A stretch of DNA of 64,000 nt from Eledone cirrhosa. Taxonomy: Eukaryota. The stretch's first letter is position 1. Every line of letters begins with the position of its first letter. The DNA lies in NCBI GenBank assembly GCA_964016885.1, contig OZ024742.1, positions 256,866,001-256,930,000 of the forward strand, read 5' to 3'. The translations under genes and the position numbers were made by a program. A model generated the notes under the pieces. That model ran no database searches. It saw only the letters and a program-made list of their open reading frames with translations, and was not told the origin of the DNA. Below, in pieces: positions 9,396 through 56,990 of this stretch.

Positions 9396-9576
9396 TGTTT
9401 CTACTTTAGGCACAAGGCCAGCAATTACCCAGTGCATTACTGGTACTTTATGTTATCGACCCCGTAAGGATGTAAAGCAAAGTCAACCTCGGCGGGATTT
9501 GAACTCAGATCGTAAAGGGCCGTAACTATGTTGGAAAGCATGGCGTCCGACCCTCTACCGATATTGCCAAATCACC
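9396..9576 (-). mobile_element. tRNA-derived SINE (Meta-domain-like core) with 18-bp TSD
   Basis: Direct repeat ACCATTAGATATAATAAT at 9378-9395 and 9577-9594. The minus strand has the B-box GAGTTCAAATCC and the core CATCCTTACGGGGTCGATAACATAAAGTACCAG. Homologous to 44369-44548. Confidence 0.85.
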
Positions 9577-9660
9577 ACCATTAGATATAATAATACCATT
9601 AAAAAAACATTCCAGAAAAAATCATTTTTTAGACCAAGGCTACACGACCCACGACACCCG

Positions 9661-18579: not shown

Positions 18580-20628
18580 CTCAAAGTTTTCAAATCTAAA
18601 AGAAATCCACCCCCTAACAAACTTTTATCTGACTTTGAAAACGATATAATTTCTATCATACAAGGGGTCAAATTCAAGAGAAACTTCAAAGGCCAGGAAT
18701 ATCTGAAAGGCATTAAGGATAATATTGAGAGCTTAGAGAAAACTGAGAAGATCTTGGTGAAATCTGACAAGACCAACAACCTCTATGGAGTGCAGAAAGA
18801 CATGTATAATGGCCTCATACTGAAGGAACTGAGGAAAAAGTACAAGGTAGCAGATAAAGCCGAGCTTGAGAAAATGAATGTCGAAGCATCTTGTATAATG
18901 CACGAGTTGGAAATTGAGAACAGAACACAACCTTTCGTGCCCAGGAAACCGAAGATCAATATGAAAAATCACAAAAGGAATTTTGAAAATGATTTGCCAG
19001 TTAGATTGATCGCACCATCAAAATCGGACCTGGGCAAATTAAGCAAAAACATTCTTGACAGGGTGATACAGCAAATTAAGAACTTGGATTGTTTACCTAA
19101 CCTGAGCTTGTGGAAGGGAACTGGAGAGGTTGTTGAGTGGTTTAAGCAAATTAAATATAACAATAATAATAAGTTTATTCAACTTGATATTGCTAACTAT
19201 TATTCTTCTATTACCCCTAATCTACTAAATAAGGCACTAAATTACGCATTCAAACATACAGACCTAACTAGCAATGAAATGCACATTATATTATCGGCTA
19301 GGAAAACATTGATAGAATTTAATGACCAACTATGGACCAGAGCAGATAGAGATAGCAATTTTGACATTACTATGGGATCATACGACTCAGCTCAGGTAAC
19401 TGACCTTGTGGGCTTATTTTTAATCAATTCGCTACATAGGAAAATACCTGGTACTACCGGAGGTTTATATAGAGATGACATGCTTTTACTTATTGATAAT
19501 AATAACTCTGAACTAAATAGAAAAAGAAAACAAATTACACAATTTTTAAATTACTTTAATCTTAAAATAGAAATTGAGAACAACCATAGAATAGTCAATT
19601 TCCTAGATATAACATTAAATCTCAACACATGTCTTCACTATCCTTTTCACAAGTTGAATGAAAACTTAAACTATGTCAGCTCTAACTCTAACCACCCCAG
19701 ATCTGTCAAAAACACTATAGTAAACTCTGTTCAAAAACGTATCTCTAGAATCTCGTCTAATAGAAAGATTTTCGACGAAAAAGCCCAGTACTACAATGAA
19801 GCGTTAGCTAGAGCAGGATATAGTGATAAGATTATGTACATAGATAATGATAGACAAACTAAACAAAATAACAACTATTTTAATTACGGCAACAACCTTA
19901 ACAAATATAATAGAAAGCATTACAATAATTCCAAAAGCCAAAAAAGAAATAATACTAGGAACATAATCTGGTTTGCCCCCCCTTTCTCACTAAACATTAA
20001 AACCCACATCGCTAAACTATTTTTTAAAGCTCTTGATAATCGCTTCCCTAGAACACATAGGTATCACTCAATTTTCAATAGACATACTATAAAATTAACC
20101 TACTCATCCACCAAAAATTTAGCACAAAATATTAATAGAATAAATAATAGGAACTTAAAACCTAGTGATAATAGCATAAATAATATACAAGTTAACAAAT
20201 GTAACTGTAGAGATAGATCTAAATGTCCGTTAAATAACAACTGCTTAGTTAAAAATATAATATACAATTGTAATGTTAAAACTGACTCTAATTCTTTTAA
20301 CTACGTCGGGTCCACATCGACGGAATTTAAACTTCGCTATAATAACCACAAGAAATCTTTCACAGATCCAAGCAAAAAATCTTCAACAGCACTATCAGGC
20401 GTACTCTGGCAACTTAAGCTAGATAACGTTAGATATTCGACGGCTTGGAATATAGTCTCAAGAGGGATTCCTTTTAATTCATCCTCTGAGACATGTGACC
20501 TCTGCGCAGAGGAGATATTCTTTATACTAAAATCTAAAAATTCCCTTAATCTACGGACAAATTTATTCAGTTGCTGCAAACATAGATTAAACTCAAATTT
20601 TAAATATAAATTTAAATTTAAAATGTAG
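18463..20628 (+). CDS. Naiad-type PLE RT-GIY-YIG polyprotein; open frame but 5'-truncated (genuine sequence starts near 18580)
   Basis: Motifs KSDKT, VRLIAPSKS, LDIANYYSSI, FDITMGS, GLYRDD, VNFLDITLNL, SNHP, IIWFAPPFS, CNCR..CPL..CL, IIY..YVG, FKLRYNNH, CDLC and CKHR. The first ~39 aa are read from the antisense left arm. Confidence 0.93.
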   Translation: MIFHIDLRFPGHERLCSVLNFQLVHYTRCFDIHFLKLGFLKVFKSKRNPPPNKLLSDFENDIISIIQGVKFKRNFKGQEYLKGIKDNIESLEKTEKILVKSDKTNNLYGVQKDMYNGLILKELRKKYKVADKAELEKMNVEASCIMHELEIENRTQPFVPRKPKINMKNHKRNFENDLPVRLIAPSKSDLGKLSKNILDRVIQQIKNLDCLPNLSLWKGTGEVVEWFKQIKYNNNNKFIQLDIANYYSSITPNLLNKALNYAFKHTDLTSNEMHIILSARKTLIEFNDQLWTRADRDSNFDITMGSYDSAQVTDLVGLFLINSLHRKIPGTTGGLYRDDMLLLIDNNNSELNRKRKQITQFLNYFNLKIEIENNHRIVNFLDITLNLNTCLHYPFHKLNENLNYVSSNSNHPRSVKNTIVNSVQKRISRISSNRKIFDEKAQYYNEALARAGYSDKIMYIDNDRQTKQNNNYFNYGNNLNKYNRKHYNNSKSQKRNNTRNIIWFAPPFSLNIKTHIAKLFFKALDNRFPRTHRYHSIFNRHTIKLTYSSTKNLAQNINRINNRNLKPSDNSINNIQVNKCNCRDRSKCPLNNNCLVKNIIYNCNVKTDSNSFNYVGSTSTEFKLRYNNHKKSFTDPSKKSSTALSGVLWQLKLDNVRYSTAWNIVSRGIPFNSSSETCDLCAEEIFFILKSKNSLNLRTNLFSCCKHRLNSNFKYKFKFKM

Positions 20629-21900
20629 TATATTTAGTTTGTTTTATAATTATTTGGGAAACTAGCCGATAAATCTTTCGATTTCTTCTTTTTATTCTTC
20701 TTTTTATTTTTATTTTTATTTAAACATTCTTCATGAAAAATTAAACTACCCTAAAAGTTGATGCTCCAAATATTTCGAATAAACGTTACACTAGATAAAC
20801 TTCTATATTAAATATAAGAACACATGTAGACCAAATGGGCATCCTAAACTTTTTGAAATGATTTTTGCTAGACGCGATTTGATAAATAATTTTTAGCTTT
20901 ATCTGTTTTCGACTCTGATGCTTATAATGAACTTGGCAATATATTGTCAATTAATTTTGAAGGGTTGATTTTTATTATTGTAATATTTTCTAATATTTTT
21001 ATTTTTAATATGTAATATTTTTTTGTAATATTTTTATTTTTTAGTTTTCTATTTTATTATTATTTATTATTATTATTATCATTATTATATTTGTTTTGTT
21101 TCTGATATTGAAATCTGTTCTCTATTTCTGCTTGATAGATAATCATGTAGAGTAAAGACAAGAATAGTATTGTTAAAATTAATATAGACTCTATATATAT
21201 GTGTATATATATATACACATATATGTATACTTAAATTTTTATAGCACAATGAGAATGTTCTCCGTGTGAAATAGAGATTTGCAGAATTGATCACGTAAAT
21301 TCACATCGATGTTTGTAGTTATCATATAAACATATGAATTTTTAAAACTAAACATAAGATCATTACTTTTCACACATAATGGATACGTGTCTCATTCAGG
21401 AATACTGATATTTACATTATAGCACCTGGTTTTTATACGTACTAATACTTCTACATTAAAACAGGGTTTTTAAATTATGGCTCGCCTATGTCTGGTTACT
21501 TTTCATTTTTCTCTCTATATAACGGCTGGTTTCTTCCCTAACCACATATATCTCCCTTACATTAATACTAGAGCTAAATAAATAAATAAATAAATGTATC
21601 ATTGATACGTTCCAACTACCTACTTTTCTCTATATATATCTATCTCTATCTATTTCCTCTCTTTATATATATCTCTCTCTGTTTCTTTACATGAAGTTCT
21701 TCTCTTTATCTATCTTTCCATCTCTCTATTTTGTTACATGCATTTCTTCTTTTTCTTCTTTTTCTTCATTTTCTTTCTTTCTTTCCTTCTTTCTCTCTTT
21801 CTTTCTTTCTGTTTACAATTTTTTTCACTGCCAAATCAACTTTCTCAAATACAAGTCGATGTTGAACGGTATGTCAAATCTATTTATCTATAAAACTGTC

Positions 21901-21975
21901 TATATTGTATTTTGTCTGAGGAAGGCATAACATATTGTTAATATGATATCCCTGAAATATATATAATGAAATAAA
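21901..21975 (+). ncRNA. Putative minimal type I hammerhead ribozyme in the PLE 3' repeat (mirror copy at about 15450-15525, minus strand)
   Basis: CTGAGGA (21916-21922), stem II AGG-C-ATA-A-CATATT/AATATG-A-TAT-C-CCT, then GAAA and palindromic ATAT(AT)-A. Stem I pairing is weak and offset. Confidence 0.6.
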
Positions 21976-22329
21976 TATGGTTTTATAAATATAGTTTCCA
22001 TTTATTTAATATCGTATATATATATATATATATATATAAACCTACACATATATACACATACATACATACTCACATACTCATATATACCTACACACACATA
22101 TATACATACACACACGTATGCATACGTACATATATACACACACACGCATATACATATATAACTAAATATATATATATATATGAGAAAGAACATAAATATT
22201 ATATATTTATAAAAAAATAAATATTGTAATATAAAAAAAATAAAAAAAATATTAAGCTCTGTTACCTACATAGAGCACTCTTCTTTCCTGGACTTTTCCG
22301 ATGGAATTACTTCACACACACACACACGG

Positions 22330-24756: not shown

Positions 24757-24856
24757 AATATATATATATATATTACATCGAGCTATTTTCATACTTGTAA
24801 CTGGGTCATATATATTATTACCCATATTATATATATATATATATACGGGGTAACAA

Positions 24857-25935: not shown

Positions 25936-25985
25936 TATAGCAAACCGTGTCACGCTTCTTTCCTGAGTTATATATAAATATATAT

Positions 25986-27232
25986 ATATTAGAATTGGAG
26001 CTCTGAAATAGCAATATATATATGGATGTATATATAATGTATTTTGCAATACACTTTATGCTTAATTAAAAGCATTTTGAAGACCGTAAGCTATTGTTTT
26101 AAAGTAGTGACAAATTCACTCACTTTGATGTCAGCAAATAGGGGAGATAAGCCGACATGACATGTTTCGCTTTGATTGAAGCTTATCAAGGCCAACTACC
26201 CCACCTGTCTACTGAGATCAATGATGTTATATTCTTATAGAAATCTAGTAAATAATCAGGAGCTGATTATGCAGAGCGGTTGTTGGTCAGGCAGAAATTA
26301 AAAATTAGAATTGGAGCTCTGAAGTAGCAATATGGATGTATATATAATGTATTTTGCAATACACTTTATGCTTAATTAAAAGCATTTTGAAGACTGTAAG
26401 CTATTGTTTTAAAGTAGTGATAAATTCACTCACTTTGATCTCAGCAAACAGGGGAGATAAGCCGACATGCCATGTTTCGCTTTGGTTGAAGCTTATCAAG
26501 GCCAACTACCCCACCTGTCTACTGAGATCAATGATGTTATATTCTTATAGAAATCTAGTAAATAATCAGGAGCTGATTATGCAGAGCGGTTGTTGGTCAG
26601 GCAGAAATTAAAAATTAGAATTGGAGCTCTGAAATAGCAATATATATATGGATGTATATATAATGTATTTTGCAATACACTTTATACTTAATTAAAAGCA
26701 TTTTGAAGACCGTAAGCTATTGTTTTAAAGTAGACAGGTGGGGTAGTTGGCCTTGATAAGCTTCAACAAAAGCGAAATATGTCATGTCGGCTTAATTCCC
26801 CTGTTTCCTGAGATCAAAGTGAGTTAATTTGTCTCTACTTTAAAACAATAGCTTACGGTCTTCAAAATGCTTTTAATTAAGCATACAGTGTATTGCAAAA
26901 TACATTATATATACATCCATATATATATTGCTATTTCAGAGCTCCAATTCTAATTTTTAATTTCTGCCTGACCAACAACCGCTCTGCATAATCAGCTCCT
27001 GATTATTTACTAGATTTCTATAAGAATATAACATCATTGATCTCAGTAGACAGGTGGGGTAGTTGGCCTTGATAAGCTTCAACCAAAGCGAAACATGTGA
27101 TGTCGGTTTATCTCCCCTGTTTGCTGAGATCAAAGTGAGTGAATTTGTCACTACTTTAAAACAATAGCTTACGGTCTTCAAAATGCTTTTAATTAAGCAT
27201 AAAGTGTATTGCAAAATACATTATATATACAT

Positions 27233-27237
<5 letters not shown>
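25986..27237. repeat. About 310-bp unit in tandem (about 2.4 copies, plus strand) that flips into about 1.6 inverted copies
   Basis: TTAGAATTGGAGCTCTGAA recurs at about 25989, 26306 and 26615. The strand switches near 26731. Mirrored 85-aa ORFs at 26354+ and 26957-. (TA)n flanks. Confidence 0.9.
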
Positions 27238-27282
<45 letters not shown>

Positions 27283-27292
27283 GTACTTATAT

Positions 27293-28081
27293 ATAAGGTG
27301 GGTAATAATAAATATTACCCAGTTACAAGTTTGAAAATAGCTCGATGTAAAATAACAAGTATACTGCAGAGCCAAAATACAATGTAAATGACAATCAAGA
27401 GTGTTTAAAACATTTAATCATTTACCATCATTTCTTCCTGCACAGGAACGGTTTCATCGGGGTAGATAACAAAGGTCAAACACAAATATAATATAAAAAC
27501 TTTGTTACAAGAACAATTAAGAGTATACATAATTTTGGAGGCTAGATAAGCATAAGCATCAATATTTATATAGGATAACACAGTAGATAAATGCAATAAA
27601 AATTAGAACGTTTAGAAACATAATTATTATTTTCATTGGATTATGTAGTCGAATCTATATTCCTACACGTATATGTAATCCTTTGCTATACTGCAAGTAT
27701 TTTTAAATTTAACTTTGAATAGCATGCTTTCTTTATTAAAATTATTAATTTGCATGACTACTTATGATATGTTTGTAACAGCATGTTTATTTTTAATTTT
27801 GTTAATTTTTATTATTTTTATTTGCTTCTAATTGATATTGCATTTTTCAACTCCTATACTTCATATTATTTTTCCGCCTCTGTAATCTTATATAAATGTC
27901 GATACATGCTTATCTAGAGTCCCATATTATGTATCATCATAATTGTTCTTGTGACAAAGTTTTGATAGTACATTTGTGTTTTACTTTTGATATCTTTCCC
28001 GATGTATCCGGCATTATGCTAGGATGAAACGATCGTAAGTGATTAAATGATTTAAACATTCTTTGATTGTCATTTATATTG

Positions 28082-28141
<60 letters not shown>

Positions 28142-28316
28142 TGGTATTTACATTGTAGTTCAGCTCTGTAGTATAGCTGTTATTTTACATCGAGCTATTT
28201 TCATACGTGTAGCTGGTTAATATTTATTATTACCCTCATTATATATATATATATATATATATTGTGGGTTATAAATATTACCCAGTTAAAAGTATGCAAA
28301 TAGGTCGATGTAAAAT
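27293..28316. repeat. Diverged fold-back element (arms about 27293-27600 and 27840-28240) with extra copies of its 60-bp terminus
   Basis: The arms align as reverse complements. The terminal motif TTACATCGAGCTATTTTCATAC..GTAACTGG also occurs at 24772-24830 (plus) and 28262-28316 (minus). Confidence 0.75.
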
Positions 28317-28428
28317 ATTTATATATATGTATATATATCTATACATATCTCTCTCTCTCTCTCACTGTGTTTCTCTGTGTGACTGTGTGACTGTGTGACT
28401 GTGTGTCTGTCTGTGGATATATATATAG

Positions 28429-31319: not shown

Positions 31320-32083
31320 CCTATTTATTGAAATATGTATATATTTCAGTATGCTTCCATAGGCGGTATGCCGGTTGTGCACTCTATGCTCTTACAGAGC
31401 AGAGTATGATAGAATAGAAAACGAAAAATCAGTGATGCTTCTGAACTCAATGAATTGTGTGTTACAATTGTTTCGCTGGCGGACAGCTCGAGACGCGATC
31501 ATTGTGTGGATCTATGTGATTCTGGACCCGCAAGCTCGACGGACACGTCTAATGATATCAGAGCATATTCTCTCACTGGGATATCTGACCTGCATGGAGC
31601 AGTACCGTCAACAACTTTACTCTCTTAGCGCGTCCTGTGACTGGAAGCTGGTTGGCTACGTCATCATAATTCTGACCACAAGTACCAGACCGCTGACCAT
31701 CAGGACTTTAGCTGTCCCATGTCTGCTACACTTCAATAAATTACTGCTGTATTTGGTAGTTCACACATCAACGCGCTCGCACACACATATACACAACCAC
31801 ACACACACAATCACACAGAAAACAACACTCGCACGCATAGTCGCCCACTATACACACACATTTAAGGAGAACATACAACCATATACACATAAGCATACAT
31901 GCTTCCATAGAGGCACGTACACACACAGACACATGGCCACATGCCTATATACATCAACATACACACACACACATGTCCATACACATGCATACGCGTATAT
32001 ATACCCGTACACACAAACAAATATAGACATATACATAGCTCCTCCCCCTTCACCCACGCACACACATATATATACACACCTAC

Positions 32084-32119
<36 letters not shown>

Positions 32120-32522
32120 TCACACACAAATACACACTCGCTCGCAAACACACATATATACACACAAACAAGCCATTTCCGTACCTAGGTGCTTGTACAC
32201 ACACACACAATGGTTCATATACACTCTTACAAATATGCGCATATTCATATACACTCATTGTCAGTGTTGAACAAATGAGCAACGATGGTTGCTAGACACT
32301 GTACGGCTTAATTCGGGATGTTTGTTTACAAACACACCGATCATTATAATAAATGTTTGGTGAATCCATACGTACATATATATGTGTATGCATGTATGTA
32401 TATATATATATATACATACTACTGTACGTCTGTATACATATATGTATGTACGTATACATTCTTATATTTAAGTAACAGCCGTACCAAGAGTGAGAAATGA
32501 AATTTCGTTTCATTTTTTCGTT

Positions 32523-32572
<50 letters not shown>

Positions 32573-35500
32573 ATATTAAAAAAATATACATATAACGGCA
32601 CATAAAGATACACAGTGGGCTATACATGAAAGGGTATATGTGCCTACAGAGTTGTTGTTACGTTGTGAACATGGATCAATCCACGTATGGAATGTTCGCG
32701 CAAGGCCACACAATGTGCGTTCATGGCATTACAGTAAATAGTATGCGCATACCGTACATAGAAAATGCGTGCAGAATATATATAAAAGAGAAGGAACGTG
32801 TATGCATATGCGATAGTGCACAAGAGAAGCATGAAGTAAACACGTGGGTTTGTATACGGAAAATATATTAGGTGTTACAAAATGGAATGGGTGGAGATTA
32901 TTATGCTCCTCTATAAGTAGAGCGCTTACAGAGATTCGCCATGACAAAATTCCATTACTCTTCCCCATTAAAGGACATCCCGATGTCTTCTGACAGCATT
33001 TACATGAGCCTACTGATACACCACACCAACTATTTCGTTAGACGCCTGAGATGGCGCGCATTTCACCACGACAGAAGGACACATCAACCCGCACCCGATA
33101 ATCCTCAGGACCGCATAAAACGGATCTTTAGATCAAGGCGACACCCACCCCATAACGGACAGCTGGAAGAATTTGAAAAGCGTATCATCAGCATCGTCGA
33201 ATCATCAAATTCCGAAGAAATAATACACGACATACTGATTATCTCCGGAGATTGAGCTCCACAATCAAAAGCATGGAAGAATACCCGCATTTTTCTTGTG
33301 CTCTCGGGAAAAACTGGTAATGTATACATGCTCGACCGATTTACATACAACGACTGCATCGGGAAAGATGTTAGGAAAAACTACAGGACCACAGGACAGG
33401 ACAACTTAGAAAACATTAACGCCACGACCCAAAAAATAATGACTGGACTAGGACAGAACAATATGTACCCAGAAAACTTCGGATATTCATTAAAGAATCA
33501 TAAATTAGACTTTAGAACTAATCTACCTGTTAGGCTAATAGCACCCTCCAAATCGGACATAGGTACGACCAGCAAGAAAATCATAGACAGAAAACCTACC
33601 GGTAGTTTGGAAAAAAACTAGGCTTAGCTTATGGACATCAACAAGGAGGTAATTGACTGGTTCTCGCTAATAGATAGCAAACAGCAGGTACATTTTATTC
33701 AATTAGACATAGCTAATTACTACGCTTCAGTATCACCAGTAATCGTGTAGAAGGCCCTCATGAGCGCCATGGCCAAGTCCACCCTCACTAGGAAGGAGGC
33801 AAGCCTCTTAATAGCAACGAGAAAGACGCTAATTAGCTTCGAAGATAAATTATGGGAGAGGTGGGACAGATCCGACAGTTTTGACATTACCATGGGGTCG
33901 AGCGACTCTGCGCAAGTGACGGAACTGGTGGGAATCTATCTCCTCCAACGATTAGCGGAGGAGATTCCAGGGATCGGTGGGGGAATATACCGAGACGATG
34001 CACTGTTTACCTTCCGTTACCTAAACCCCAGCCAGCTGGAGCGTATGAGGAATCGCATATCGAACTTTTTAAAGCAACACAGCTTATCCTTGATGATAGA
34101 TCCTAACACTAAGACGGTGAATTTCCTGGACGTTATCCTGGAAATGAATACGAGCATACACCGACCTTATCACAAGCCCAATGAGATCCTGCAATATGTG
34201 ATAAGACAATCGGACCACCCCATGTCAGTCATAGGAGCAATAGTTAAATGAGTATCCAAACGCGTATCCACCCTGTCGGCCAACGCAGACGTGTTCAACC
34301 AGCACGCCAACTATTATAATGAGGCACTGCACAGGGCCGGTTACACAGAAACCATAGTGTACTCCACGGACAGGGAAGTGCCTTGCGTCGAGGCATGCGG
34401 ATACGACAATAGCAGTAGTACATCCATAGGTAGAGGGAACGACCCGGAATTAGTTTCCAGGTATACGAGTAGCAGCATAGATCACCTCAAGGACACACGA
34501 CCGACAATAAGACAGACGAAGACACACACGGGCTCCAGACCGCCCAGTACACGGGTCCTTACCCTGTCCCTAGAAATAGGGACAGGGTAAAGACATGTAC
34601 GGCCGTGGAACCCTGTAGTGGGAACACCCGGCCCCGTAGCAATGATATAGCCCCGACAACAGCACCACATAGCATTAACGAGACTAATAGTAGAGCCGAC
34701 AATACAAAACGGAATACCTCAGTAAGCGAACGGCGTAACCCCGACGCACACGGTAGACATATAGATAACGGCAACATATAGGACGAAATAACGGGCGGGA
34801 AAAACCCGAGACGGACACCTGACCCAACACAGATTCACGCTACTACACACACACGAAGGAACAAGACAAGGTCGAAGACCTTTACATGGTTTAACGCGCC
34901 GTATTCTAAGCATTACGAGGCCTCTTCTTCCGAGCGTTGGACGAGTGCTTCCCGCCGTCGACCAGATACCAGAAGATTTTCAACCGCCACACGGTGAAAT
35001 TCTCCTCCTCCAGCGCACCTAACATGGAAAACTACATCGCCAAAACCAGCGGCGAAGATAGGGAACCGTCAACCGTTAACCGCGGCGGCCGAATGACCGT
35101 CCATCGTAGCCCAGATGGCCCCTTGCAAACTGGTATTCCAAAAACGACCCGGCCCATGCGGCGGCAGCCACACCCGCGGAAGACGAAACAATCCAACGCC
35201 GAGTGGAATGAGTAGCGGAGGGGAGACCACTGTGTCGGCAGAACAACACCCGGAGAATCGGGAGAGCGCCGTGGCAGATCACGGGCCAGGCGTCCAAAAT
35301 AAATAACAGAACGTGCAACTGCAGCGCGGAAACACAGTGCCCTCTGCAGGGAAGATGCCTAACGAAGGGCCTGCTATATAAATGTGTGGTTAGCACGCAC
35401 AATAAAAAGCGCACCTACATCGGCGCAACATCCACGACCTTTAAATCGCGCATGTATAACCACACAAACTCTTCAAGGACCGGAGCGAGAGGCACTCTAC

Positions 35501-36333
35501 TAGGCTGGCGGAGCTGGTGTGGGACTTGAAAGAAAAAGTCACCCCGATGCCCTCAACTGGAGTATCGTTCGGCACGCGAATGCATATTCGGCTGGAAATA
35601 GAAAGTGTAGGCGATGCCTATCCGAGGCTATTGAGATAGTCAGACTGAAGGATGATGCGGTCAACCTGAAATCGGAAATAATCATGACGTGCAGACACCA
35701 AAGAAGGTGCACACTCTCCGCATGGAATCCACCGGGCAGCCCAACCTAAAGGCATGCGGCGGAGCGCACGCCGACCAGAGCGGCGAAACTGATTTGAAGG
35801 CTCAGACACCATACACTGTTAACTATATATGCCCCGTGGGGTAAGCCGAAATAACCCAGGATGCCTACCCGACTCTACACGTCACCCTAGGCAAAAACAT
35901 CACTTGAGCCGGGACAGGCTGACCCGGATGCCATTGATATTCAGTCAAGTGCCTCACACCAATAAGAGACTATACCTCAACCATAGTGACATATTCCAGT
36001 ATAGCCCCCCCCCCCCCCCCCGCCCTGTATGTGTATCTTTTCTGTGGAGAGTGCATAATCTCCACGCATTCCATTTTGTAATACCTAATGTATTTTCCGT
36101 ATACAGACGCACGTGTGTATTTCATGCTTCTCTTGTGCACTATCTCATATGCATACACATTCCTACTTTTTATTTTATATATACACGCATTTTCTATATA
36201 CGCATTTTCTATGCACGCATCTTCTATCTACGATCTGCGCATACTATTTACTCTAATACCATGAACTCACATTATGTGGCTTTCGTGAACATTCCATACG
36301 TGGATTGATCCATGCTCGCAACGTAACAACATA

Positions 36334-36403
<70 letters not shown>

Positions 36404-37323
36404 CGTGTCTTTTATGTAAAATATATATTTATAACGAGATGCATCCTTTCATGTATGACCCATTATGTATCTTTATATGACTTTGTGTGTATATTGTTTA
36501 TATGTATATATATATATATAATTTGTCTATGCGTGCGCGAGTGTGTATATGAATATGTACGTATGGATTCACCAAACATTTAATATAATGCTCGGTGTGT
36601 TTGTAAACAAACATCCCGAATTAAGCCGTACAGTGTCTAGCAACCATCGTTGCTCATTTGTTCAACACTGACAATGAGTGTATATGAATATGCGCATATT
36701 TGTAAGAGTGTATATGAACCATTGTGTGTGTGTGTGTGTGTGTGTGTACAAGCACCCATGTCGGGAAAGGGCTTGTTTGTGTGTGTATATATGTCATTGT
36801 GCGAGCGAGTGTGTATTTGTGCGTGTATATATGTATATGGGTACGTGTGTATATATGTGTGTGCGTGGGTGGAGGGGTGTGGTCTATGTATATGTCTGTA
36901 CTTGTTTTTATGTACGGGTATATATACGCGTATGTAGAGTACGAACATGTGTGTCTGTGTGGGTACGTGCCTCTCTGGATGCATGTAAGCGTATGTTTAT
37001 ATGTTTATCTGTTCTCCTTAAATGTGTGTGTATAGCGGGCGTCTATGCGTACGACTGTCGTTATCTATGTGATTGTGTGTGTGTGGGTGTGTATGTGTTC
37101 GCGGGTGGATATGTGAACTACCAAACACAGCAGTAATTTATTGGAGTGTAGCATACATGGGACAGCGAATGCCCTGATGGTCAGCGGTCTGGTACCTGTC
37201 GTCAGAGTTATGATGACGTAGACAACAAGCGGCCGATCACGAGACACGCCAATAGGATGAAGTTTTTGACGGTACTGGCCCATGCAGGTCAGATGCATCA
37301 TTGATTTTTCGTTTTCTATTCTA
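31320..37323 (+). mobile_element. Full-length but decayed Naiad-type PLE with about 1.4-kb inverted terminal repeats
   Basis: Coding region 32941-35749. Segment 31410-32915 is a diverged reverse complement of 36045-37323 (shared ...NGSYTLLQICAYSYTLIVSVEQMSNDGC in ORFs 31375+ and 36637-). (TA)n flanks. Confidence 0.9.
32941..35749 (+). pseudogene. Naiad-type RT-GIY-YIG ORF with native N-terminus, multiple stops and frameshifts
   Basis: Motifs LKDIP, FVRRLRWRAF, VRLIAPSKSDIG, FDITMGSSDSAQV, GIYRDD, VNFLD, SDHP, IFNRHTVK, CNC..CPLQGRCL, YIGAT, CRRCLSE and CRHQ. Confidence 0.92.
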
Positions 37324-37350
37324 TATATATATATATATATATAAATATAT

Positions 37351-40324
37351 ATATAGTAGAATAATCGAGTATCGAAAAATCGGCGCACGAGTTCACGATA
37401 AACAAAATTCGAGATGAGCGGCAGAGGGCTCTATAATTCAAATAAATTAGAGCTATAACTATCGTTAAAATACCGTCACACGTAGAATATGTCTACAATC
37501 AACCAAATAACCGAAAAGTTCGATATGGAAGATTCGGGACACTCAGATAAATTATCAATAAATCAATAAATGAAATGAATGTAAAATGCATACCCGGACC
37601 CACTAGAGAGATGGAATATCTAGCTTCTTGGGTTTCTGTAAATCCTTAAACCGTCATCTATCAGCTCATATAAAAATATAAGCCTTACAGATAATCGGGG
37701 GACTGGAGTTACTTCATCAACGAGCTTCGTCCGAATGGATAAAAAGATAAGACCCAGGCTAAAAATACGCACATGGATTTCAGCAAGGGAGATAACCTTT
37801 ATATCCGCAAAAATATTCGGAAAAATGTGGCAAAAACACATATCGAATAAGAGTGCTCAATAGACATGTTAAAATAAACAGGGGCTATTCATCATTTAAT
37901 AGAATCGACAAAAAATGAACAATAAAATTAACAGGTCAATAGCTAAGTCTAGAGCTAAATATAGTAGAATAATCGAGTATCGAAAAATCGGCGCACGAGT
38001 TCACGATAAACAAAATTCGAGATGAGCGGCAGAGGGCTCTATAATTCAAATAAATTAGAGCTATAACTATCGTTAAAATACCGTCACACGTAGAATATGT
38101 CTACAATCAACCAAATAACCGAAAAGTTCGATATGGAAGATTCGGGACACTCAGATAAATTATCAATAAATCAATAAATGAAATGAATGTAAAATGCATA
38201 CCCGGACCCACTAGAGAGATGGAATATCTAGCTTCTTGGGTTTCTGTAAATCCTTAAACCGTCATCTATCAGCTCATATAAAAATATAAGCCTTACAGAT
38301 AATCGGGGGACTGGAGTTACTTCATCAACGAGCTTCGTCCGAATGGATAAAAAGATAAGACCCAGGCTAAAAATACGCACATGGATTTCAGCAAGGGAGA
38401 TAACCTTTATATCCGCAAAAATATTCGGAAAAATGTGGCAAAAACACATATCGAATAAGAGTGCTCAATAGACATGTTAAAATAAACAGGGGCTATTCAT
38501 CATTTAATAGAATCGACAAAAAATGAACAATAAAATTAACAGGTCAATAGCTAAGTCTAGAGCTAAATATAGTAGAATAATCGAGTATCGAAAAATCGGC
38601 GCACGAGTTCACGATAAACAAAATTCGAGATGAGCGGCAGAGGGCTCTATAATTCAAATAAATTAGAGCTATAACTATCGTTAAAATACCGTCACACGTA
38701 GAATATGTCTACAATCAACCAAATAACCGAAAAGTTCGATATGGAAGATTCGGGACACTCAGATAAATTATCAATAAATCAATAAATGAAATGAATGTAA
38801 AATGCATACCCGGACCCACTAGAGAGATGGAATATCTAGCTTCTTGGGTTTCTGTAAATCCTTAAACCGTCATCTATCAGCTCATATAAAAATATAAGCC
38901 TTACAGATAATCGGGGGACTGGAGTTACTTCATCAACGAGCTTCGTCCGAATGGATAAAAAGATAAGACCCAGGCTAAAAATACGCACATGGATTTCAGC
39001 AAGGGAGATAACCTTTATATCCGCAAAAATATTCGGAAAAATGTGGCAAAAACACATATCGAATAAGAGTGCTCAATAGACATGTTAAAATAAACAGGGG
39101 CTATTCATCATTTAATAGAATCGACAAAAAATGAACAATAAAATTAACGGGTCAATAGCTAAGTCTAGAGCTAAATATAGTAGAATAATCGAGTATCGAA
39201 AAATCGGCGCACGAGTTCACGATAAACAAAATTCGAGATGAGCGGCAGAGGGCTCTATAATTCAAATAAATTAGAGCTATAACTATCGTTAAAATACCGT
39301 CACACGTAGAATATGTCTACAATCAACCAAATAACCGAAAAGTTCGATATGGAAGATTCGGGACACTCAGATAAATTATCAATAAATCAATAAATGAAAT
39401 GAATGTAAAATGCATACCCGGACCCACTAGAGAGATGGAATATCTAGCTTCTTGGGTTTCTGTAAATCCTTAAACCGTCATCTATCAGCTCATATAAAAA
39501 TATAAGCCTTACAGATAATCGGGGGACTGGAGTTACTTCATCAACGAGCTTCGTCCGAATGGATAAAAAGATAAGACCCAGGCTAAAAATACGCACATGG
39601 ATTTCAGCAAGGGAGATAACCTTTATATCCGCAAAAATATTCGGAAAAATTTGGCAAAAACACATATCGAATAAGAGTGCTCAATAGACATGTTAAAATA
39701 AACAGGGGCTATTCATCATTTAATAGAATCGACAAAAAATGAACAATAAAATTAACGGGTCAATAGCTAAGTCTAGAGCTAAATATAGTAGAATAATCGA
39801 GTATCGAAAAATCGGCGCACGAGTTCACGATAAACAAAATTCGAGATGAGCGGCAGAGGGCTCTATAATTCAAATAAATTAGAGCTATAACTATCGTTAA
39901 AATACCGTCACACGTAGAATATGTCTACAATCAACCAAATAACCGAAAAGTTCGATATGGAAGATTCGGGACACTCAGATAAATTATCAATAAATCAATA
40001 AATGAAATGAATGTAAAATGCATACCCGGACCCACTAGAGAGATGGAATATCTAGCTTCTTGGGTTTCTGTAAATCCTTAAACCGTCATCTATCAGCTCA
40101 TATAAAAATATAAGCCTTACAGATAATCGGGGGACTGGAGTTACTTCATCAACGAGCTTCGTCCGAATGGATAAAAAGATAAGACCCAGGCTAAAAATAC
40201 GCACATGGATTTCAGCAAGGGAGATAACCTTTATATCCGCAAAAATATTCGGAAAAATGTGGCAAAAACACATATCGAATAAGAGTGCTCAATAGACATG
40301 TTAAAATAAACAGGGGCTATTCAT
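37351..40324. repeat. Tandem array of a 608-bp unit, about 4.9 near-identical copies, embedded in (TA)n
   Basis: The same 73-aa ORF recurs at 37620, 38228, 38836, 39444 and 40052 (period 608). Only two variant sites were noticed (AACAGGTC/AACGGGTC and AATGTGGC/AATTTGGC). Confidence 0.97.
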
Positions 40325-40326
40325 AC

Positions 40327-40373
<47 letters not shown>

Positions 40374-40380
40374 TATATAC

Positions 40381-40509
<129 letters not shown>

Positions 40510-40516
40510 TATATAC

Positions 40517-40584
<68 letters not shown>

Positions 40585-40629
40585 CAAAATATTAATAGAT
40601 GGATACATTCACATATTCAAAATATATGT

Positions 40630-40700
40630 TTCATTATATATATTTCTGGGGTACTCTGTTGTTTTTTCAGTACGACCTCATCAGATAACATACATAAATT
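40630..40700 (-). ncRNA. Putative minimal hammerhead ribozyme (3' repeat copy)
   Basis: The minus strand reads CTGATGA-GGTCGTACT..AGTACCCCA-GAAA-TATA. Stem II is partly degraded relative to the copy at 44675. Confidence 0.5.
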
Positions 40701-41624
40701 GATGTATGGCATACCTCAACTGTGCTGATTGTTCAATTCCAGTCTTGGCAGTGATTTATTACAACAAAACTCAATATTTATATACCACAAGTTAAAGCGT
40801 GACAAACTAAATATGATAGAGAGGGATAATTTGCGAGATATAAGTATTAGGAGTGGGTGAGTAGGAGAAAGTATAGAATAAGTAAATAAATAAATTTTAA
40901 AAAAAACAAAAAAACACATAAGTTTATATAAATATTAAATATATAAATATGTAAATAACCGTGTTATAGAAAATGACAAAAGAGAGAGAGACTGTTAAAT
41001 AGAAGAGAAAAGGGAAAAAGATACAAAGATGAAGATAAAAAGAAGGGAGAAGCAGATAGAGATGATAGAATATATAACTGCATAAGGAAAATAGATAAAA
41101 AAGAAAGAAATAAAGAAAAGAGGGATATGATGCGTGACCGTTTTATTTTTTCAAATATTAAGTCAGGTAGAAGCGATCAATTAAATACCATGAAATTTTA
41201 ATGTATTGTATTTGATAAATTATACTATTATATTACATCAAAATTGAACAATATTAAATATTTTCAATGATAATCAGGAGCATAGTTAAATTAATAAATA
41301 TATTCAATATTTAGTTACAAAATTCCAAGTCTGAAATATTATTAAGTACCAATGTTGTTTATAAGTATAGTAAATAAGTATGAGAATAGTTATCGTAACT
41401 TAATTGCATATCAGCATCTGTATATGCATTTTATATAATGTTTAGAATTATAAATATTATAAACAATATTATTTAAATCAATAATTGTCAATTACATATA
41501 GGATTAATTATTAGTTATATTTACTCTTAAAGTATGATTATTTCTATTCATCTAAATCTTATTGTATTCAATACTATAGGTCAAGTTAAATACAAATTAT
41601 TAATCAATTTGGATAAAACACGAT

Positions 41625-41756
41625 AAATGTAAACAAAAGCTCCGTACAATATATCTAAACGTTTAAATTAACTAAAAGGTTTGAAAGCCTAAATGTAAAC
41701 AAAAGTTCCGTACAACATATCTCAACGTTTAAATTAACTAAAAGGTTTGAAAGCCT
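41625..41756. repeat. 66-bp tandem duplication in the PLE 3' UTR
   Basis: AAATGTAAACAAAAG.TCCGTACAA...GGTTTGAAAGCCT occurs twice in tandem. Confidence 0.85.
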
Positions 41757-42829
41757 GAAAGTATTTCAGATCTCAAATTTAGAAAATTTAAGACATAAAA
41801 TGAGGATTCAAAATCCAAACTAAAGGTATTTAGTCAATCAAAGGATTATCTTACTATATAAAAGAATCAATATTTATTTCCTAAGGTGAGGTAAAACATT
41901 TTACATAATACTAATAAAAACAATAATTATTAATAAAAGTCAATATCTTTTCTCACTCAGTCAATGTTTTTCCTAAATTTATATGATGCTTGAAATATAT
42001 TTGTAACTTTATGGAGGCAATTTGAAAATAATTCACTGTTTTTATTAATTAAATTACCATGATTAGCAATTATTAATAGAGTCTCAACATTGCAAAAATT
42101 GCAGTTAGGTGAAATGGAATGCTTCCAATGGGATTCTGAGTTTCTAACCTTAATCCAAGAAATTGAGTATTTCATATTTTTCTCTTTTAAAGACCATATT
42201 AATTGTGATAATGAGGTGGAAAATGTTTTATCTGAATTAGAAAAAGAATGTTTATGATTGGAAAATCTAAGTTTATAGTTCGATGAAGTTGCACCTATGT
42301 AGTTATATTATTATTTGTTTTAATGGTGCATTTATATACTAAATTCTTATCAAGGCAGTTATTTTGTAAAGGGCATTCAGATTTCCTTCAACAGTTACAG
42401 TTAAATTTCATGCTATTTCTATAATCCAAACTGATCATATTATCATTGTTAATATTTGTAGGAGTTCTACAATGTGTTTAAATTATTGTTATTGTTATTC
42501 TCAATAACTATTGTATTATTATTATTACTATTGATGTTGTTTTGAATTAAGAATTTTGCTATTAATTTTAGCAATATTTTGAGCCATATTCATGGTTGTT
42601 GAGTACGAAAGTTTAACTGTGTCTATTGAAGATAGATTAATACTTATGTGATTTAGGGAAACATTTATCTAAGGCTTAAAAAGAATAAATGTGCTAAAGG
42701 GGTTTTAATACCTAAAGATGCTGGTGGAGCATACCAAATAATAGATCTAGTTCTAATTTATTTCACCGATTTATTCTCCAAGTTGTTATTTTTATTTATA
42801 TTTATATTTTTATTCTTACAGTCATCTTT

Positions 42830-44015
42830 GGAGAGGCAGGTTAAATTGCCAGGGGTCTGGTTCGGTCCGGACCTCCAGACGGACAAAAACTGGGACGAGG
42901 TGACGAGCAGGGTGGCTTCTCTCACCCAGAAATGGGCCGAGAGGAAGCTATCCCTGAAAGGTCGAGCGGAGGTGGCTAACGCGTACATCGCGTCCGTCAT
43001 CTGCTACCGCCTGACCGTCGTACCTTGTCCTAAGCCTCGCCTGACTGCGCTGGAGCGTTTGCTCTTTCGCTTTTTGTGGAAGGGACGCGCTCCGATGGTC
43101 AGGCGGTCCATCTGTTGTCAACACCCGCTACGTGGAGGGCTGGGCATGCCGTGGCTGATGATGCGCAGGCACGCGCTCAGGCTACGACATCTCCACCTCT
43201 TCCTCGACGGTGATCAGGTGTGGTCGCCGTTTGCTAGACACGTATTTCCCCAGCTCGTTTCCTTGACGGAGCTGCAGTCCTGGGTCAAGCGAAGACCGAG
43301 AGGGAGCGCCTGGAGACTGGAATGTCTTCAGGCGCTCACAGCCCTCGACCAATCGGGCAATGTGATCGGTGGAAACTCCACCTCGGCGTTCTATAGAGGA
43401 TTAGTGGAGGGGAAGAGCGACGACGTACTTGGGGAAACTCTAGTCGTCAACGAAAATCAACTAGCCAATCTCTTCGGAAGAACTTTCGGGCCAGGGCCTA
43501 TGGACAACTTCCAGAAATCTCTGGCCTGGCAGTGCTACCGAGGAGCCTTGCCAGTTCGGGATAAACTCTACAGGCATGGAGGTGCCGTCAGCCGGGCATG
43601 TCTGAGATGCGCGCAGGGCGACGAAACCGTCCTGCACGCACTCTTCCAGTGTCCGAAAATTGCTGACTTGTGGGTTTATGTCGAACACCTGCTGTCGCGT
43701 TTAGGACGGATCCGGCTATCATCTGAGTCCATCGTGAGGATTGCCCCGCTTTCCTCCTTTAGCCGGGAAGGGCAGGCAGTTTTTATCTGTCTGGTGGCCA
43801 TGGCGAAAGAGATAGTATGGTGGACACGTTTGAAAGGGCTGAAGACGAGCACTTACCTCTTCGGTGATGCTCTGATTGCCTTTTTCAAATTTCATTTGAA
43901 AAGGAAAATCAGAGTAGAGAGGGAAGTGCTCTCTTCCCAGCATTTTGTTGAAAGATGGGTGAGAGAAGCAAGAATGGCCCGAGTGAATGGGCCTACTCTG
44001 AGTATATATCTGTAA
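42830..44015 (+). CDS. C-terminal part of LINE ORF2 (RT thumb and CCHC zinc finger), open frame, lacking EN and RT core
   Basis: Motifs W..RKLSLKGR, FLWKG, GGLGMP and CLRC...ETVLHALFQC, typical of the L1/Tx1 ORF2 C-terminus. The first ~16 aa of the listed ORF come from the flank. Confidence 0.85.
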
Positions 44016-44265
44016 ATTAAAGGTGGAAAATTGGGAGAGGGCACTTGCCTTGGTGGTCAGGGTCATTGTGGCTTTTTACTGGGCTTTCTCCACAAATGTC
44101 CCTCCGAAGTCTCCCCCTTATTGGGGAATTTTTCATTGTTATTTTTTGTTACATCCTCTGTTTTTGTTTTTTACGCGCAGAAATTCCCATTTGTACTGTC
44201 CTGCATTGTCCTGCACTGTCCTTAATGTCTACTTTATGTAAACCCTTGTGGTTAATAAAGAAATC
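42830..44265 (+). mobile_element. 5'-truncated Tx1/L1-clade LINE with 18-bp TSD
   Basis: TSD ATTCTTACAGTCATCTTT at 42812-42829 and 44266-44283. GC-rich relative to its flanks. The 3' end is AATAAAGAAATC. Confidence 0.92.
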
Positions 44266-44368
44266 ATTCTTACAGTCATCTTTATTTATATTATTCCTAT
44301 TATTATGAATATTTTGTTTATAGTTACTATTATTATTTTCTACATATTCAATATTATTATTATATCCT

Positions 44369-44548
44369 AATTGACAGTATCAGTGGAGGGGCGGATGCCA
44401 TGCTTTCCAGCATAGTTACGTCCCTTTACGATCTGAGTTCAAATCCTGCCGAGGTTAACTTTGCCTTTCATCCTTACGGGGTCGATAACATAAAGTACCA
44501 GTAATGTACTGAGTAATTGCTGGCCTTGTGCCTAAAGTAGAAACAATG
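44369..44548 (+). mobile_element. tRNA-derived SINE (same family as 9396-9576) with 10-bp TSD
   Basis: ATTATATCCT at 44359-44368 and 44549-44558. Contains GAGTTCAAATCC and GCCTTTCATCCTTACGGGGTCGATAA. Confidence 0.85.
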
Positions 44549-44674
44549 ATTATATCCTGGTTTATGTAACGCTTCATTATAATATCCTGCTTTACTATTA
44601 AAAATGGATTTGTTAGCAGAAAATCTGGTTATACGTTGTTGGCACACTATTGACTATTGCATTTTTAACACATT

Positions 44675-47954: not shown

Positions 47955-50330
<2,376 letters not shown>

Positions 50331-52494: not shown

Positions 52495-52805
52495 ACATCT
52501 AAAATAAGAACAACAAGAACAACAACAACAACAACAACAGCAGCAGCAGCAGAAGCAGCAGCAGCATCTATACGATAAAAGGTCGAACAACATGAACTGC
52601 CTTCACCACCACTCAGACAAAACTATCAACAACCACCAACACCAATATTTAAAACAACAACAGCATCAAAACGAGCAACAACACCAATAACTACAACAAC
52701 AGCGTCAAAAGGAACAACACGAAGATCTACAACAACAGCAGCATAAACATGATAAAAAGCCAAACAACATCAACTGCCTTCACCGACACCACCACCACCA
52801 CCATT
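52495..52805. repeat. Degenerate (CAA/CAG/CAC)n low-complexity tract with internal duplication
   Basis: Triplet runs. GATAAAA..C.AACAACAT.AACTGCCTTCACC occurs at about 52574 and 52751. Confidence 0.8.
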
Positions 52806-55132: not shown

Positions 55133-55213
<81 letters not shown>

Positions 55214-55216
<3 letters not shown>

Positions 55217-55771
55217 AATAGAGGTGTAACACACACGTTAGGATATATTGGTAAACGGAAAAGAAAATGCTGACAAATTGTTCACAGTGAAAAATAGTTT
55301 AATTAGGAATAAGTGAGAATTAGTAATAGCATTGTTTAGTATTCAGTTTTTGGTTTTAAGATTTAACGGTTGCGCATTTCTAATGCTTTTCAAAAATAAT
55401 TTTGAGATAGAGCGTCCGTGCTGTTTGCTCTAATCTGATTAGTTTTGGAAATTCTACCTGTTTTTATGTTAAAAAAGTGGCTCCAGCGGTATTAAAATAA
55501 GTTTTGCGCCAATTCGTGTTGCAAAAATTCTTGTGGTGAAAACAATTTTGATTGGTCGGTAGAGGTCATGTGAATGTTAAAAATTAATTTTGCGCCAAAT
55601 GTATGGTTTGTGTCGGCTGATTGAGAAGTCAGTGAACAATAAGTCTTTCAAAACAAATATGTGTGTGTGTGTGTGTAGTAGTAGTAAAGAGGTTCGTTGT
55701 TGTGATAATGGTCAGCAGGCATGTGTGTGCGAACCGCAGCCTGTCGATAGTTCAAATGCCTATTAAGACAA

Positions 55772-55861
<90 letters not shown>

Positions 55862-56915
55862 CAGAGTAATTCGTGGTAGAGGGATGGTGAGTAGGAATGT
55901 GTCTGTAAGTGTGTGGGGGATATTTTAACATGCTAAAAGATGTTTTTCAGCTCTTGTCTTATACGGAGAAGTGTGTGTGTGTGTGCGTGTGTGTGTGTTT
56001 GTATGTCTCTTTGTATGTTAATGTACGCGTGTGTATGTGTGTGTGTATATATGTGCGTGTGTGCGCATACACGTGTGTGTGTGAGAATGTGTGTGTGTGG
56101 GTGGACCAGTAATTATGTTTGTGATACTGGTGAAATGGTGTACATTATTCGATATTTTCAGTAAAATCAATTCTCTCAATAGAACATCAAAACCTTAATA
56201 ATAAAAGGTGTGAAATGATATATAGTATTGGCATAATACCAAGGTGTGTGTGAGTGTTTCTAGATTGTACGTACTGCAAGGGGAATCCATTAGGCCTTGC
56301 CGTTTTGGAATACCTGTGTACAAATATGTATCTGGAGTGTGTCCAGAAATTGTATACTTGTGTACAAATATGTATCTGGAGTGTGTCCAGATTGTACGTA
56401 CTGCAAGGGGAATCCATTAGGCCTTGCCGTATTAGAATACTTGTGTACAAATCTGTATGTGCCCATCAGTGTGCAATGCATGTGTGCGTTTATGTATGTG
56501 TGTGTGTCGGCACATTTATATCTATAGACATCAAAAGGTATGCAAATTTGTGTATATTTCTCAATCAGCGGACACAAACCTACATTTGGCGCAAAATAAA
56601 TGTTTAACATTCACATGACCTCTACCGACCAATCAAACTTGTTTTGACCACAAGAATTTTTGCAACACGAACTGTCGCAAAACTTAATTTAATACCGCTG
56701 GAGCCACTTTTTTAACATAAAAACAGGTAGAATTTCCAAAACTAATCAGATTAGAGCAAACATCACGGACGCTCTATCTCAAAATTATTTTTGAAAAGCA
56801 TTAGAAATGCGCACCCGGTAAAACCAATACTATTACTAATTCTCACTTATTCCTAATTAAACTATTTTTCACTGTGAACAATTTGTCAGCATTTTCGTTT
56901 CCGTTTACCAATATA
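55214..56915. repeat. Fold-back element with about 350-bp terminal inverted repeats in (TA)n
   Basis: 55243-55605 is the reverse complement of about 56578-56915. A 29-bp tail lies on the left only. Internal (GT)n tracts and a duplicated CAGATTGTACGTACTGCAAGGGGAATCCATTAGGCC segment. Confidence 0.9.
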
Positions 56916-56921
56916 TATATA

Positions 56922-56990
<69 letters not shown>

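Follow-up and report, generated by a model that had tools for sequence, protein, structure and literature searches.

A young array of 608-bp repeats with a predicted hammerhead in every unit, probably a retrozyme, in a (TA)n tract of Eledone cirrhosa

Background

Retrozymes without long terminal repeats (LTRs) have been described from coral, Mytilus and axolotl as non-coding units in head-to-tail order, each with a single type I hammerhead, a GC content below 50 %, no LTR organisation, a stable predicted circle and Penelope-like elements alongside (Cervera and de la Pena 2020, PMC7229834). According to this account they are transcribed, cut by their hammerheads, ligated and copied by Penelope machinery, and RNA multimers were seen in axolotl. 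Which retroelement moves animal retrozymes, and whether as circle or as linear multimer, is still debated on the grounds of co-occurrence and of similar termini (PMC7229834; bioRxiv 10.64898/2026.07.22.740005). For octopus or other cephalopods we found no description of retrozymes in open-access literature listings. Here we analyse 64,000 nucleotides of Eledone cirrhosa (GenBank assembly GCA_964016885.1, contig OZ024742.1, positions 256,866,001 to 256,930,000 of the forward strand), hereafter the window, in which a tandem array of 608-bp units lies within a (TA)n microsatellite and shares the features named first. From modelled folds and by analogy with the described systems, the array is probably a non-LTR retrozyme, inserted as an RNA-derived multimer into (TA)n by the reverse transcriptase (RT) and endonuclease (EN) of a Hydra-clade Penelope element.

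Units of metazoan retrozymes measure 150-450 bp in the description of PMC7229834, against 608 bp here, while a 2026 vertebrate survey reports 51-972 bp (bioRxiv 10.64898/2026.07.22.740005), a range that includes our unit. The predicted hammerhead departs further from those described: it occupies 134 nt, with a 77-nt helix II, a 36-nt helix III, U at position 3 and an A.A mismatch, and together with the predicted U3.G8 opposition these arms would widen the natural design range. Most animal retrozyme circles are free to form the ribozyme (PMC7229834), in contrast to the predicted circle here, where helix I is sequestered. As far as the sequence tells, the novelty would lie in the size of the unit and above all of the hammerhead; non-LTR retrozymes themselves are already known. 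The hammerheads at the 3' ends of Hydra-clade Penelope elements, a clade with a family listed for Octopus bimaculoides, share type I topology and the (TA)n target and often have a mismatched base of helix II (Craig et al. 2021, PMC8557442 File S2), but are listed there with C3, a helix II that spans no more than 26 nt, a helix III that is short and a location near the 3' end of the element, whereas the motif of the array lies ~245 nt from the end of a repeat that has no open reading frame (ORF) and no detectable similarity to the termini beside it. Fungal, protist and mycoviral type I hammerheads have, like the present one, a long and stable helix III that should allow single-copy folding and no obvious canonical contact of loop 1 with loop 2, but a 'long' helix II there comprises 6-8 bp (PMC4209133, PMC13725137) and here, in tandem repeats of an animal, a multi-segment arm of 77 nt. 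Among transcribed tandem repeats, newt satellite 2 and the hammerhead repeats of Schistosoma likewise carry a single type I hammerhead in each unit; the units of newt satellite 2 measure ~330 bp, and their weak helix III requires folding as a dimer (PMC7229834, PMC4209133). Compared with both, the array is short and of recent origin, and it lies within a microsatellite. A very young insertion with readable Hydra-target junctions, a near-intact Hydra element and a second hammerhead array make the questions of mover and of template testable in one genome.

Results and discussion

Structure and age of the array

Four full units and a partial fifth of 542 nt, together 4.89 copies, constitute the array (Table 1). 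At a period of 608 bp, 2363 of 2366 positions match, against 592-747 for the other periods tried between 600 and 615; Tandem Repeats Finder, which covers periods up to 500, gave no entry for the array. Two variant sites are present in 2974 bp: units 1-4 have A, A, G, G at unit position 583 (37933, 38541, 39149, 39757), a site that is missing from the partial unit 5, and unit position 477 is T in unit 4 only (39651). Pairwise comparison of the units yielded 8 differences in 5816 aligned bases, an identity of 99.86 %. An earlier note on this DNA, made by a model from the letters alone, had described about 4.9 copies of 608 bp with a partial last unit and two variant sites, one splitting units 1-2 from units 3-4, and all of this was recovered. 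It had also called the array young, and rightly: the arms of the flanking Penelope elements are only 89 % and 91 % identical, and the array is therefore much younger than its neighbours. The four hairpin pairs listed in the note (GCTCTA/TAGAGC, CCGAA/TTCGG, TCTGTAA/TTACAGA, CTCATAT/ATATAAG) are all found in the unit; two fall inside the minus-strand hammerhead described below, one as the apical hairpin of helix II, the other as an alternative pairing that would disturb the core. The enrichment in CpG noticed there holds as well, with an observed/expected ratio of 1.33 versus 0.83 in the rest of the window and only 3 of 307 GC-matched windows as high, though the left flank also reaches ~1.1. 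RNA editing or deamination during reverse transcription was rejected as source of the A,A,G,G pattern, the order being wrong for either strand.

Near-identical units between microsatellites are hard to assemble and the A/G switch in the middle of the array could be a switch of haplotypes, thus the copy number might be an artefact of a collapsed or expanded repeat or of a haplotype mosaic. The window has no N, the junctions are clean and a private variant marks unit 4; we consider such an artefact highly improbable, and the nature of the unit is independent of the copy number.

The unit has a GC content of 35 %. A coding relic was rejected: the longest stop-to-stop frame of the unit has 78 aa, the two longest frames lack a Pfam match. 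None of 240 Penelope-like proteins matched the unit dimer at E<1e-3. The unit shows no LTR organisation, though no search was made for a primer-binding site, and the window lacks tRNA genes; a motif search gave no polymerase III A and B boxes. Searches of other collections with the unit returned only 34-39-nt AT-rich matches in phages (E 0.05-0.6, 19 records), nothing in plasmids and no exact match to a 26-mer of the unit in GTDB genomes.

A predicted hammerhead of type I

The minus strand of all five units carries a predicted type I hammerhead with the same core throughout. It was obtained as the top match of a wide-gap scan for three topologies (types I-III), in which the gaps had been widened because of the long helix II arms (27-62 nt) at the Penelope ends of the window; it is the one strong type I candidate on this strand, and no candidate was found on the plus strand of the unit. 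The core elements U4 G5 A6, G8 A9 and G12 A13 A14, the A15.1-U16.1 pair and a NUH triplet are all present, the cleavage triplet being GUC with a C15.2-G16.2 pair. The earlier note had recognised no canonical ribozyme or known non-coding RNA; on this point it was wrong, as a ribozyme motif, a non-canonical type I hammerhead, is present. An Rfam scan as proposed there returned nothing at gathering score in the whole 64-kb window; between 37300 and 38700, scanned to E 10, six matches were all to weak hairpin or AT-rich families and none to a hammerhead, and in the whole-window E-value scan the matches listed (150 of 209) were almost all look-alikes of microRNA models in microsatellites, with none in the array. 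The hammerhead thus escapes Rfam. Judged by its strand, the RNA sense of the array is likely the minus strand, with the 5' end at 40324 in the truncated unit and the 3' end at 37351.

A pairing of GGAC, 3 nt upstream of helix I, with GUCC in the internal loop of helix II could form a pseudoknot (Table 1). Pseudoknots of this kind between helices I and II have been described (PMC3088659), and the pairing is suggestive of such a tertiary contact; it was spotted after the fact, and 638 of 30228 random flank pairs (2 %) match as well.

Table 1 Features of the array and its surroundings (positions in the window; a dot marks features without strand)
Feature	Position	Strand	Remark
Tandem array of 608-bp units	37351..40324	-	orientation taken from the predicted hammerhead
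Unit starts	37351, 37959, 38567, 39175, 39783		last unit ends 40324
Predicted type I hammerhead, unit 1	37592..37725	-	134 nt; descriptor scan and folding
Helix I, unit 1	arms 37725-37721 and 37596-37592	-	5 bp, two G.U
Core UUGAUGA, unit 1	37720-37714	-
Helix II, unit 1	37713-37637	-	77 nt
GAAA, unit 1	37636-37633	-
Helix III, unit 1	37633-37598	-	36 nt; opens with five Watson-Crick pairs
GUC triplet, unit 1	C17 at 37597	-	predicted cut after GUC, unit position 247
Predicted hammerhead, unit 2	38200..38333	-	predicted cleavage after 38205
Predicted hammerhead, unit 3	38808..38941	-	predicted cleavage after 38813
Predicted hammerhead, unit 4	39416..39549	-	predicted cleavage after 39421
Predicted hammerhead, partial unit 5	40024..40157	-	predicted cleavage after 40029
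Possible 4-bp pseudoknot	37700..37732	-	GGAC 37732-37729 with GUCC 37703-37700
Left (TA)n target and junction	37322..37355	.	array starts within ATATA microhomology
Right junction	40325..40579	.	5 nt (ACAAT) not continuing the unit, then 250-bp (TA)n block
Left neighbour, decayed Hydra-like Penelope element	32905..37321	+	RT-EN remnants 33121-35472 (tblastn)
Right neighbour, decayed Hydra-like Penelope element	40580..44650	-	ORF remnants 42772-41972 (tblastn), 44644-44552

Predicted folding

Unconstrained folding of the 134-nt segment produced the three-way junction with an unpaired core and an open helix I, at a junction probability of 0.69; 16 of the 17 tested hammerhead pairs had probabilities of 0.72-0.96, and 4 of 200 shuffles were equally stable (z -2.4). 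With a strict descriptor that admits C-G, U-G or U-A at positions 3-8, none of 2000 shuffles reached a junction probability of 0.1. As this descriptor had been picked after the hit was seen, the test was repeated with a neutral one that allows any one core mismatch in types I-III: among 3000 shuffles 246 had some candidate, two had stems of at least 5/4/5 bp and none attained a probability of 0.05. In sliding windows (16 per strand) the hammerhead window was the minimum of the minus strand at z -3.1, versus z -0.1 for this window on the plus strand. The folding score is harsh on short natural hammerheads, the controls from the window scoring 0.000-0.19, and the strict descriptor misses two Penelope-end motifs (40684, 44687); the score therefore indicates a fold that is, by these models, beyond chance and says nothing on activity.

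For the circular minus-strand monomer a branched structure with a minimum free energy of -141.2 kcal/mol was predicted (z -3.7, 0 of 60 shuffles, 62 % paired), the plus-strand circle having z -2.0. The predicted minus-strand circle keeps helices II and III and sequesters helix I, and formation of the hammerhead costs 3.2 kcal/mol. Its stability would suit an endogenised viroid-like or satellite RNA circle that replicated from RNA to RNA and was captured once by Penelope machinery, as would the size, the monomer-competent helix III and the lack of kin in the window. Viroid-like circles are marked by a ribozyme in both polarities or by a rod-like fold. Here the opposite strand offers no hammerhead candidate and no hepatitis delta virus-like pattern (pattern run without positive control), the fold is branched instead of rod-like and an ORF is lacking; this origin is very unlikely. 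The retrozyme-like branch of the earlier note's proposal, by comparison, gains support from the hammerhead in each unit, the non-coding sequence of low GC content and the stable circle. All retrozyme traits that can be judged from sequence are found in the array, with the caveat that positions 3 and 8 do not form a Watson-Crick pair.

Junctions and a second hammerhead array

The left end of the array lies in TA microhomology (Table 1); five alternating T/A begin at only 4 of the 608 unit positions. An AA interruption of the (TA)n tract at 37344 corresponds to the unit's own AAATATAG register plus three extra TA units. The 3' end of the array is ~245 nt past the cut site, compared to 36-58 nt at five Penelope-type ends. 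In the right (TA)n block (40330-40579) a short interrupted motif is present twice, ~136 bp apart, which suggests an internal duplication of the microsatellite.

A second retrozyme-like array occupies 25988-27240. It consists of 310-bp units, ~2.4 minus-strand copies being joined at ~26730 to an inverted plus-strand run, and four of its copies contain a compact type I hammerhead with a U3-A8 core (cores 26189, 26499, 26753, 27069) that gave sub-threshold matches to Rfam Hammerhead_HH9 (E 0.003 and 0.021). The tandem-plus-inverted layout is typical of Penelope insertions, and its two 3' ends are different unit positions. Together with the 3' offset of the 608-bp array, these ends fit permuted priming, as expected. 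AA interruptions occur only three times in 3636 bases of the (TA)n tracts of the window, and those at 25977 and 37344 lie 10-11 nt from the 3' junctions of the 310-bp and the 608-bp array, respectively, both in register with unit AAAT plus extra TA units; the other end of the 310-bp array has no such mark. The pattern, two cases noticed after the fact, could reflect RT stutter at priming, a target preference or later slippage.

Head-to-tail copies, an AT-rich insertion site and several hairpins are also features of a non-autonomous rolling-circle DNA element of the Helitron, Helentron or Replitron type that had formed a concatemer, and the earlier note had named Helitrons as an option. Helitrons carry TC at the 5' end and a hairpin-CTRR at the 3' end. 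Neither end of the array matches a TC start or a hairpin-CTRR end on either strand, a circular-DNA-virus-type nonamer was not found (pattern run without positive control), the array begins at one position of the unit and breaks off at another, and the hammerhead in each unit would be left unexplained. A rolling-circle DNA element is thus hardly probable, and this branch of the note's proposal is not upheld.

Penelope elements as neighbours and candidate helpers

The window consists almost wholly of retroelements and (TA)n. Both neighbours of the array are decayed Hydra-like Penelope elements whose 3' ends face the array and abut its (TA)n tracts, in agreement with the earlier note, which had placed the array between two such ends. 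The left element has lost its hammerhead by a 144-nt deletion, while the inverted copy at ~31400-32901 has kept it. The right element contains nested insertions and has an inverted short copy from ~44670; its 3' end, at 40580, is preceded at a distance of ~55 nt by a type I hammerhead core (40684). A 452-aa frame at 42657-44015 with a zf-RVT match (PF13966, E 8e-9) is likely an L1-type fragment nested in this element.

The youngest Penelope element of the window, at 15409-22016, is Hydra-like and has an inverted copy of 98.7 % identity. Its intact 736-aa frame (18418-20628) carries the DKT, CxCX5C, CxxC and CxH motifs, which are given as motifs of the (TA)n-targeting Hydra clade (PMC8557442); the RWK motif was not present in the frame. 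This element is the best local candidate for the helper enzyme. Named relatives of one Penelope-like protein of the window were all molluscan among the matches listed, with 39-44 % identity to Argonauta hians. Those of a second were Argonauta, Octopus, Mytilus and other bivalves among the matches listed, the best near-full-length identities there being 56 % (Argonauta) and 52-54 % (Octopus sinensis).

A 3'-end motif common to the unit and the left Penelope family (GATTTTTCG, ATTCTA) was considered and is not claimed, as 31, 38 and 107 of 1000 shuffles reach its score in the three comparisons made; ATTCTA is found at 4 of 138 (TA)n flanks.

Proposed course of insertion and points against it

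As in known retrozymes, the minus strand would be transcribed, possibly by read-through from the Penelope element on the right, whose orientation is towards the array; the hammerheads would release 608-nt monomers by cutting after GUC, and a host RtcB-type ligase would circularise them. Penelope endonuclease may then nick (TA)n, the 3' end anneal to a UA-rich patch of the unit RNA, and target-primed reverse transcription run from the left junction to the right for ~4.9 units and stop within unit 5. A circular template, with a single change from one variant to another, is likely, or else a linear multimer left uncut, which would be plausible from a donor array with a slow ribozyme.

Several findings weigh against this reading, first of all those on the core. 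Position 3 is U instead of C, and U3 opposite G8 forms a wobble and not a Watson-Crick pair; the base of helix II (10.1-11.1), usually a G-C pair, is an A.A mismatch followed by G-C. The natural covariant of the 3-8 pair is U3-A8 (PMC3088659, PMC4209133), from which U3.G8 differs; PMC7151607 names a natural U3/G8 core solely in combination with an insertion of 2 nt, in a halophile variant, and our literature search found no rate for a U3.G8 hammerhead. Among the Hydra rows of PMC8557442 File S2, C3 is listed in 26 of 26 and A.A at the base of helix II in none, though a mismatch at this site is listed in 15 of 26, mostly U.U, otherwise U.C; C.A is given for one other family. Other hammerheads of the window have C.A and G.A there. 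Since positions 3 and 8 do not form a Watson-Crick pair, the claim of a canonical, fast ribozyme has to be lowered: the hammerhead is probably real in origin, and U3 with the A.A mismatch likely makes the modelled ribozyme slow. The fold has its weak points as well: when the descriptor was loosened to two mismatches, 1 of 50 shuffles matched or beat the score on stem length alone, and in a linear flank of 25-60 nt the active fold is not the one of lowest energy, costing 4.0-6.2 kcal/mol at a helix I probability of 0.0. Only one of nine predicted Xenopus retrozymes cleaved in vitro in the account of bioRxiv 10.64898/2026.07.22.740005.

The two core departures, the active fold disfavoured in longer context and the inactivity of most tested Xenopus candidates would also be expected if the hammerhead were a dead relic, damaged by the C3U change and the lost base pair of helix II, and the array a passive repeat that does not cleave itself. 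We regard this as unlikely: the core is still surrounded by all three helices and the possible pseudoknot in intact form, the base of helix II is often mismatched in the Hydra elements of PMC8557442, and the identical core in all five copies means that the source molecule had it when moving.

Further points against the proposed retrozyme insertion concern its partners. Kin of the 608-bp unit were not found elsewhere in the 64-kb window (blastn, nhmmer). Two inverted Penelope copies end 149-152 nt past their cut site. In comparison with 11 Penelope ends of the window the unit showed no significant similarity, the best of the 11 comparisons being reached by 3 and 10 of 200 shuffles in T-rich sequence, and because of this the helper element is proposed from context.

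The order A,A,G,G of units 1-2 versus 3-4, finally, is incompatible with a single round of copying on one circle and calls for a change of template, a linear multimer or a local duplication later on. The single insertion of a multimer suggested in the earlier note stands only in part, as the multimer is favoured and the one pass round a single circle weakened by the variant of units 3-4. Doubling of an A,G dimer would give exactly A,A,G,G, and the same hammerhead element may have inserted with one or two units that reached 4.9 copies later by unequal crossover or gene conversion, as a minisatellite from a Penelope-type terminus; local amplification of Penelope termini is a model discussed in bioRxiv 10.64898/2026.07.22.740005. 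However, the unit is unlike either flanking terminus, the permuted ends, both in (TA)n, require that more than a unit was inserted first, and, with only two variant sites in 2974 bp, there was little time for repeated rounds. This course is a tentative alternative to the insertion of a ready multimer, which we prefer.

A wider and rather doubtful extension of the retrozyme reading would make the array the first example of a group of large retrozymes from molluscs, likely cephalopods, with oversized, pseudoknot-braced hammerheads invisible to Rfam and probably to the usual descriptors as well, circle copying by Hydra-clade Penelope enzymes from (TA)n nicks and RT stutter that adds TA units. If this were true, the retrozyme parasite and its Penelope helper would also lengthen the microsatellites they target.

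Other hammerhead-like motifs and repeats of the window

Ten further hammerhead-like motifs are located at Penelope-type ends (14499, 15509, 21916, 30435, 30965, 31542, 40684, 44687, 57339, 57410), several of them decayed; their helix II spans 27-62 nt, against at most 26 nt in the Hydra elements of PMC8557442. None attains the Rfam gathering score. Curated Rfam thresholds thus miss the other hammerhead-like motifs of the window too, and surveys may undercount such elements in molluscs.

At 9526-12446 lies a decayed Penelope-like element of another type, with a DKG-type RT remnant, a GIY-YIG match (PF01541, E 3.8e-6) and mollusc relatives. Dispersed or inverted repeat pairs that end in (TA)n, with 87-92 % identity, are present at 13828-14344/59670-60172, 48075-50184 and 55153-56990; the scanned stretches of these contained no convincing hammerhead. 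Related short sequences at 24770-24850, 27265-27355 and 28180-28320, flanked by (TA)n, form inverted pairs of 76-91 % identity and are possibly the ends of a small element. A remnant of a Hydra-like endonuclease was recognised at 48727-48924, and a CAG/AAC-rich low-complexity tract at 52500-52790, with a poly-Q translation, could be either a simple repeat or a coding exon.

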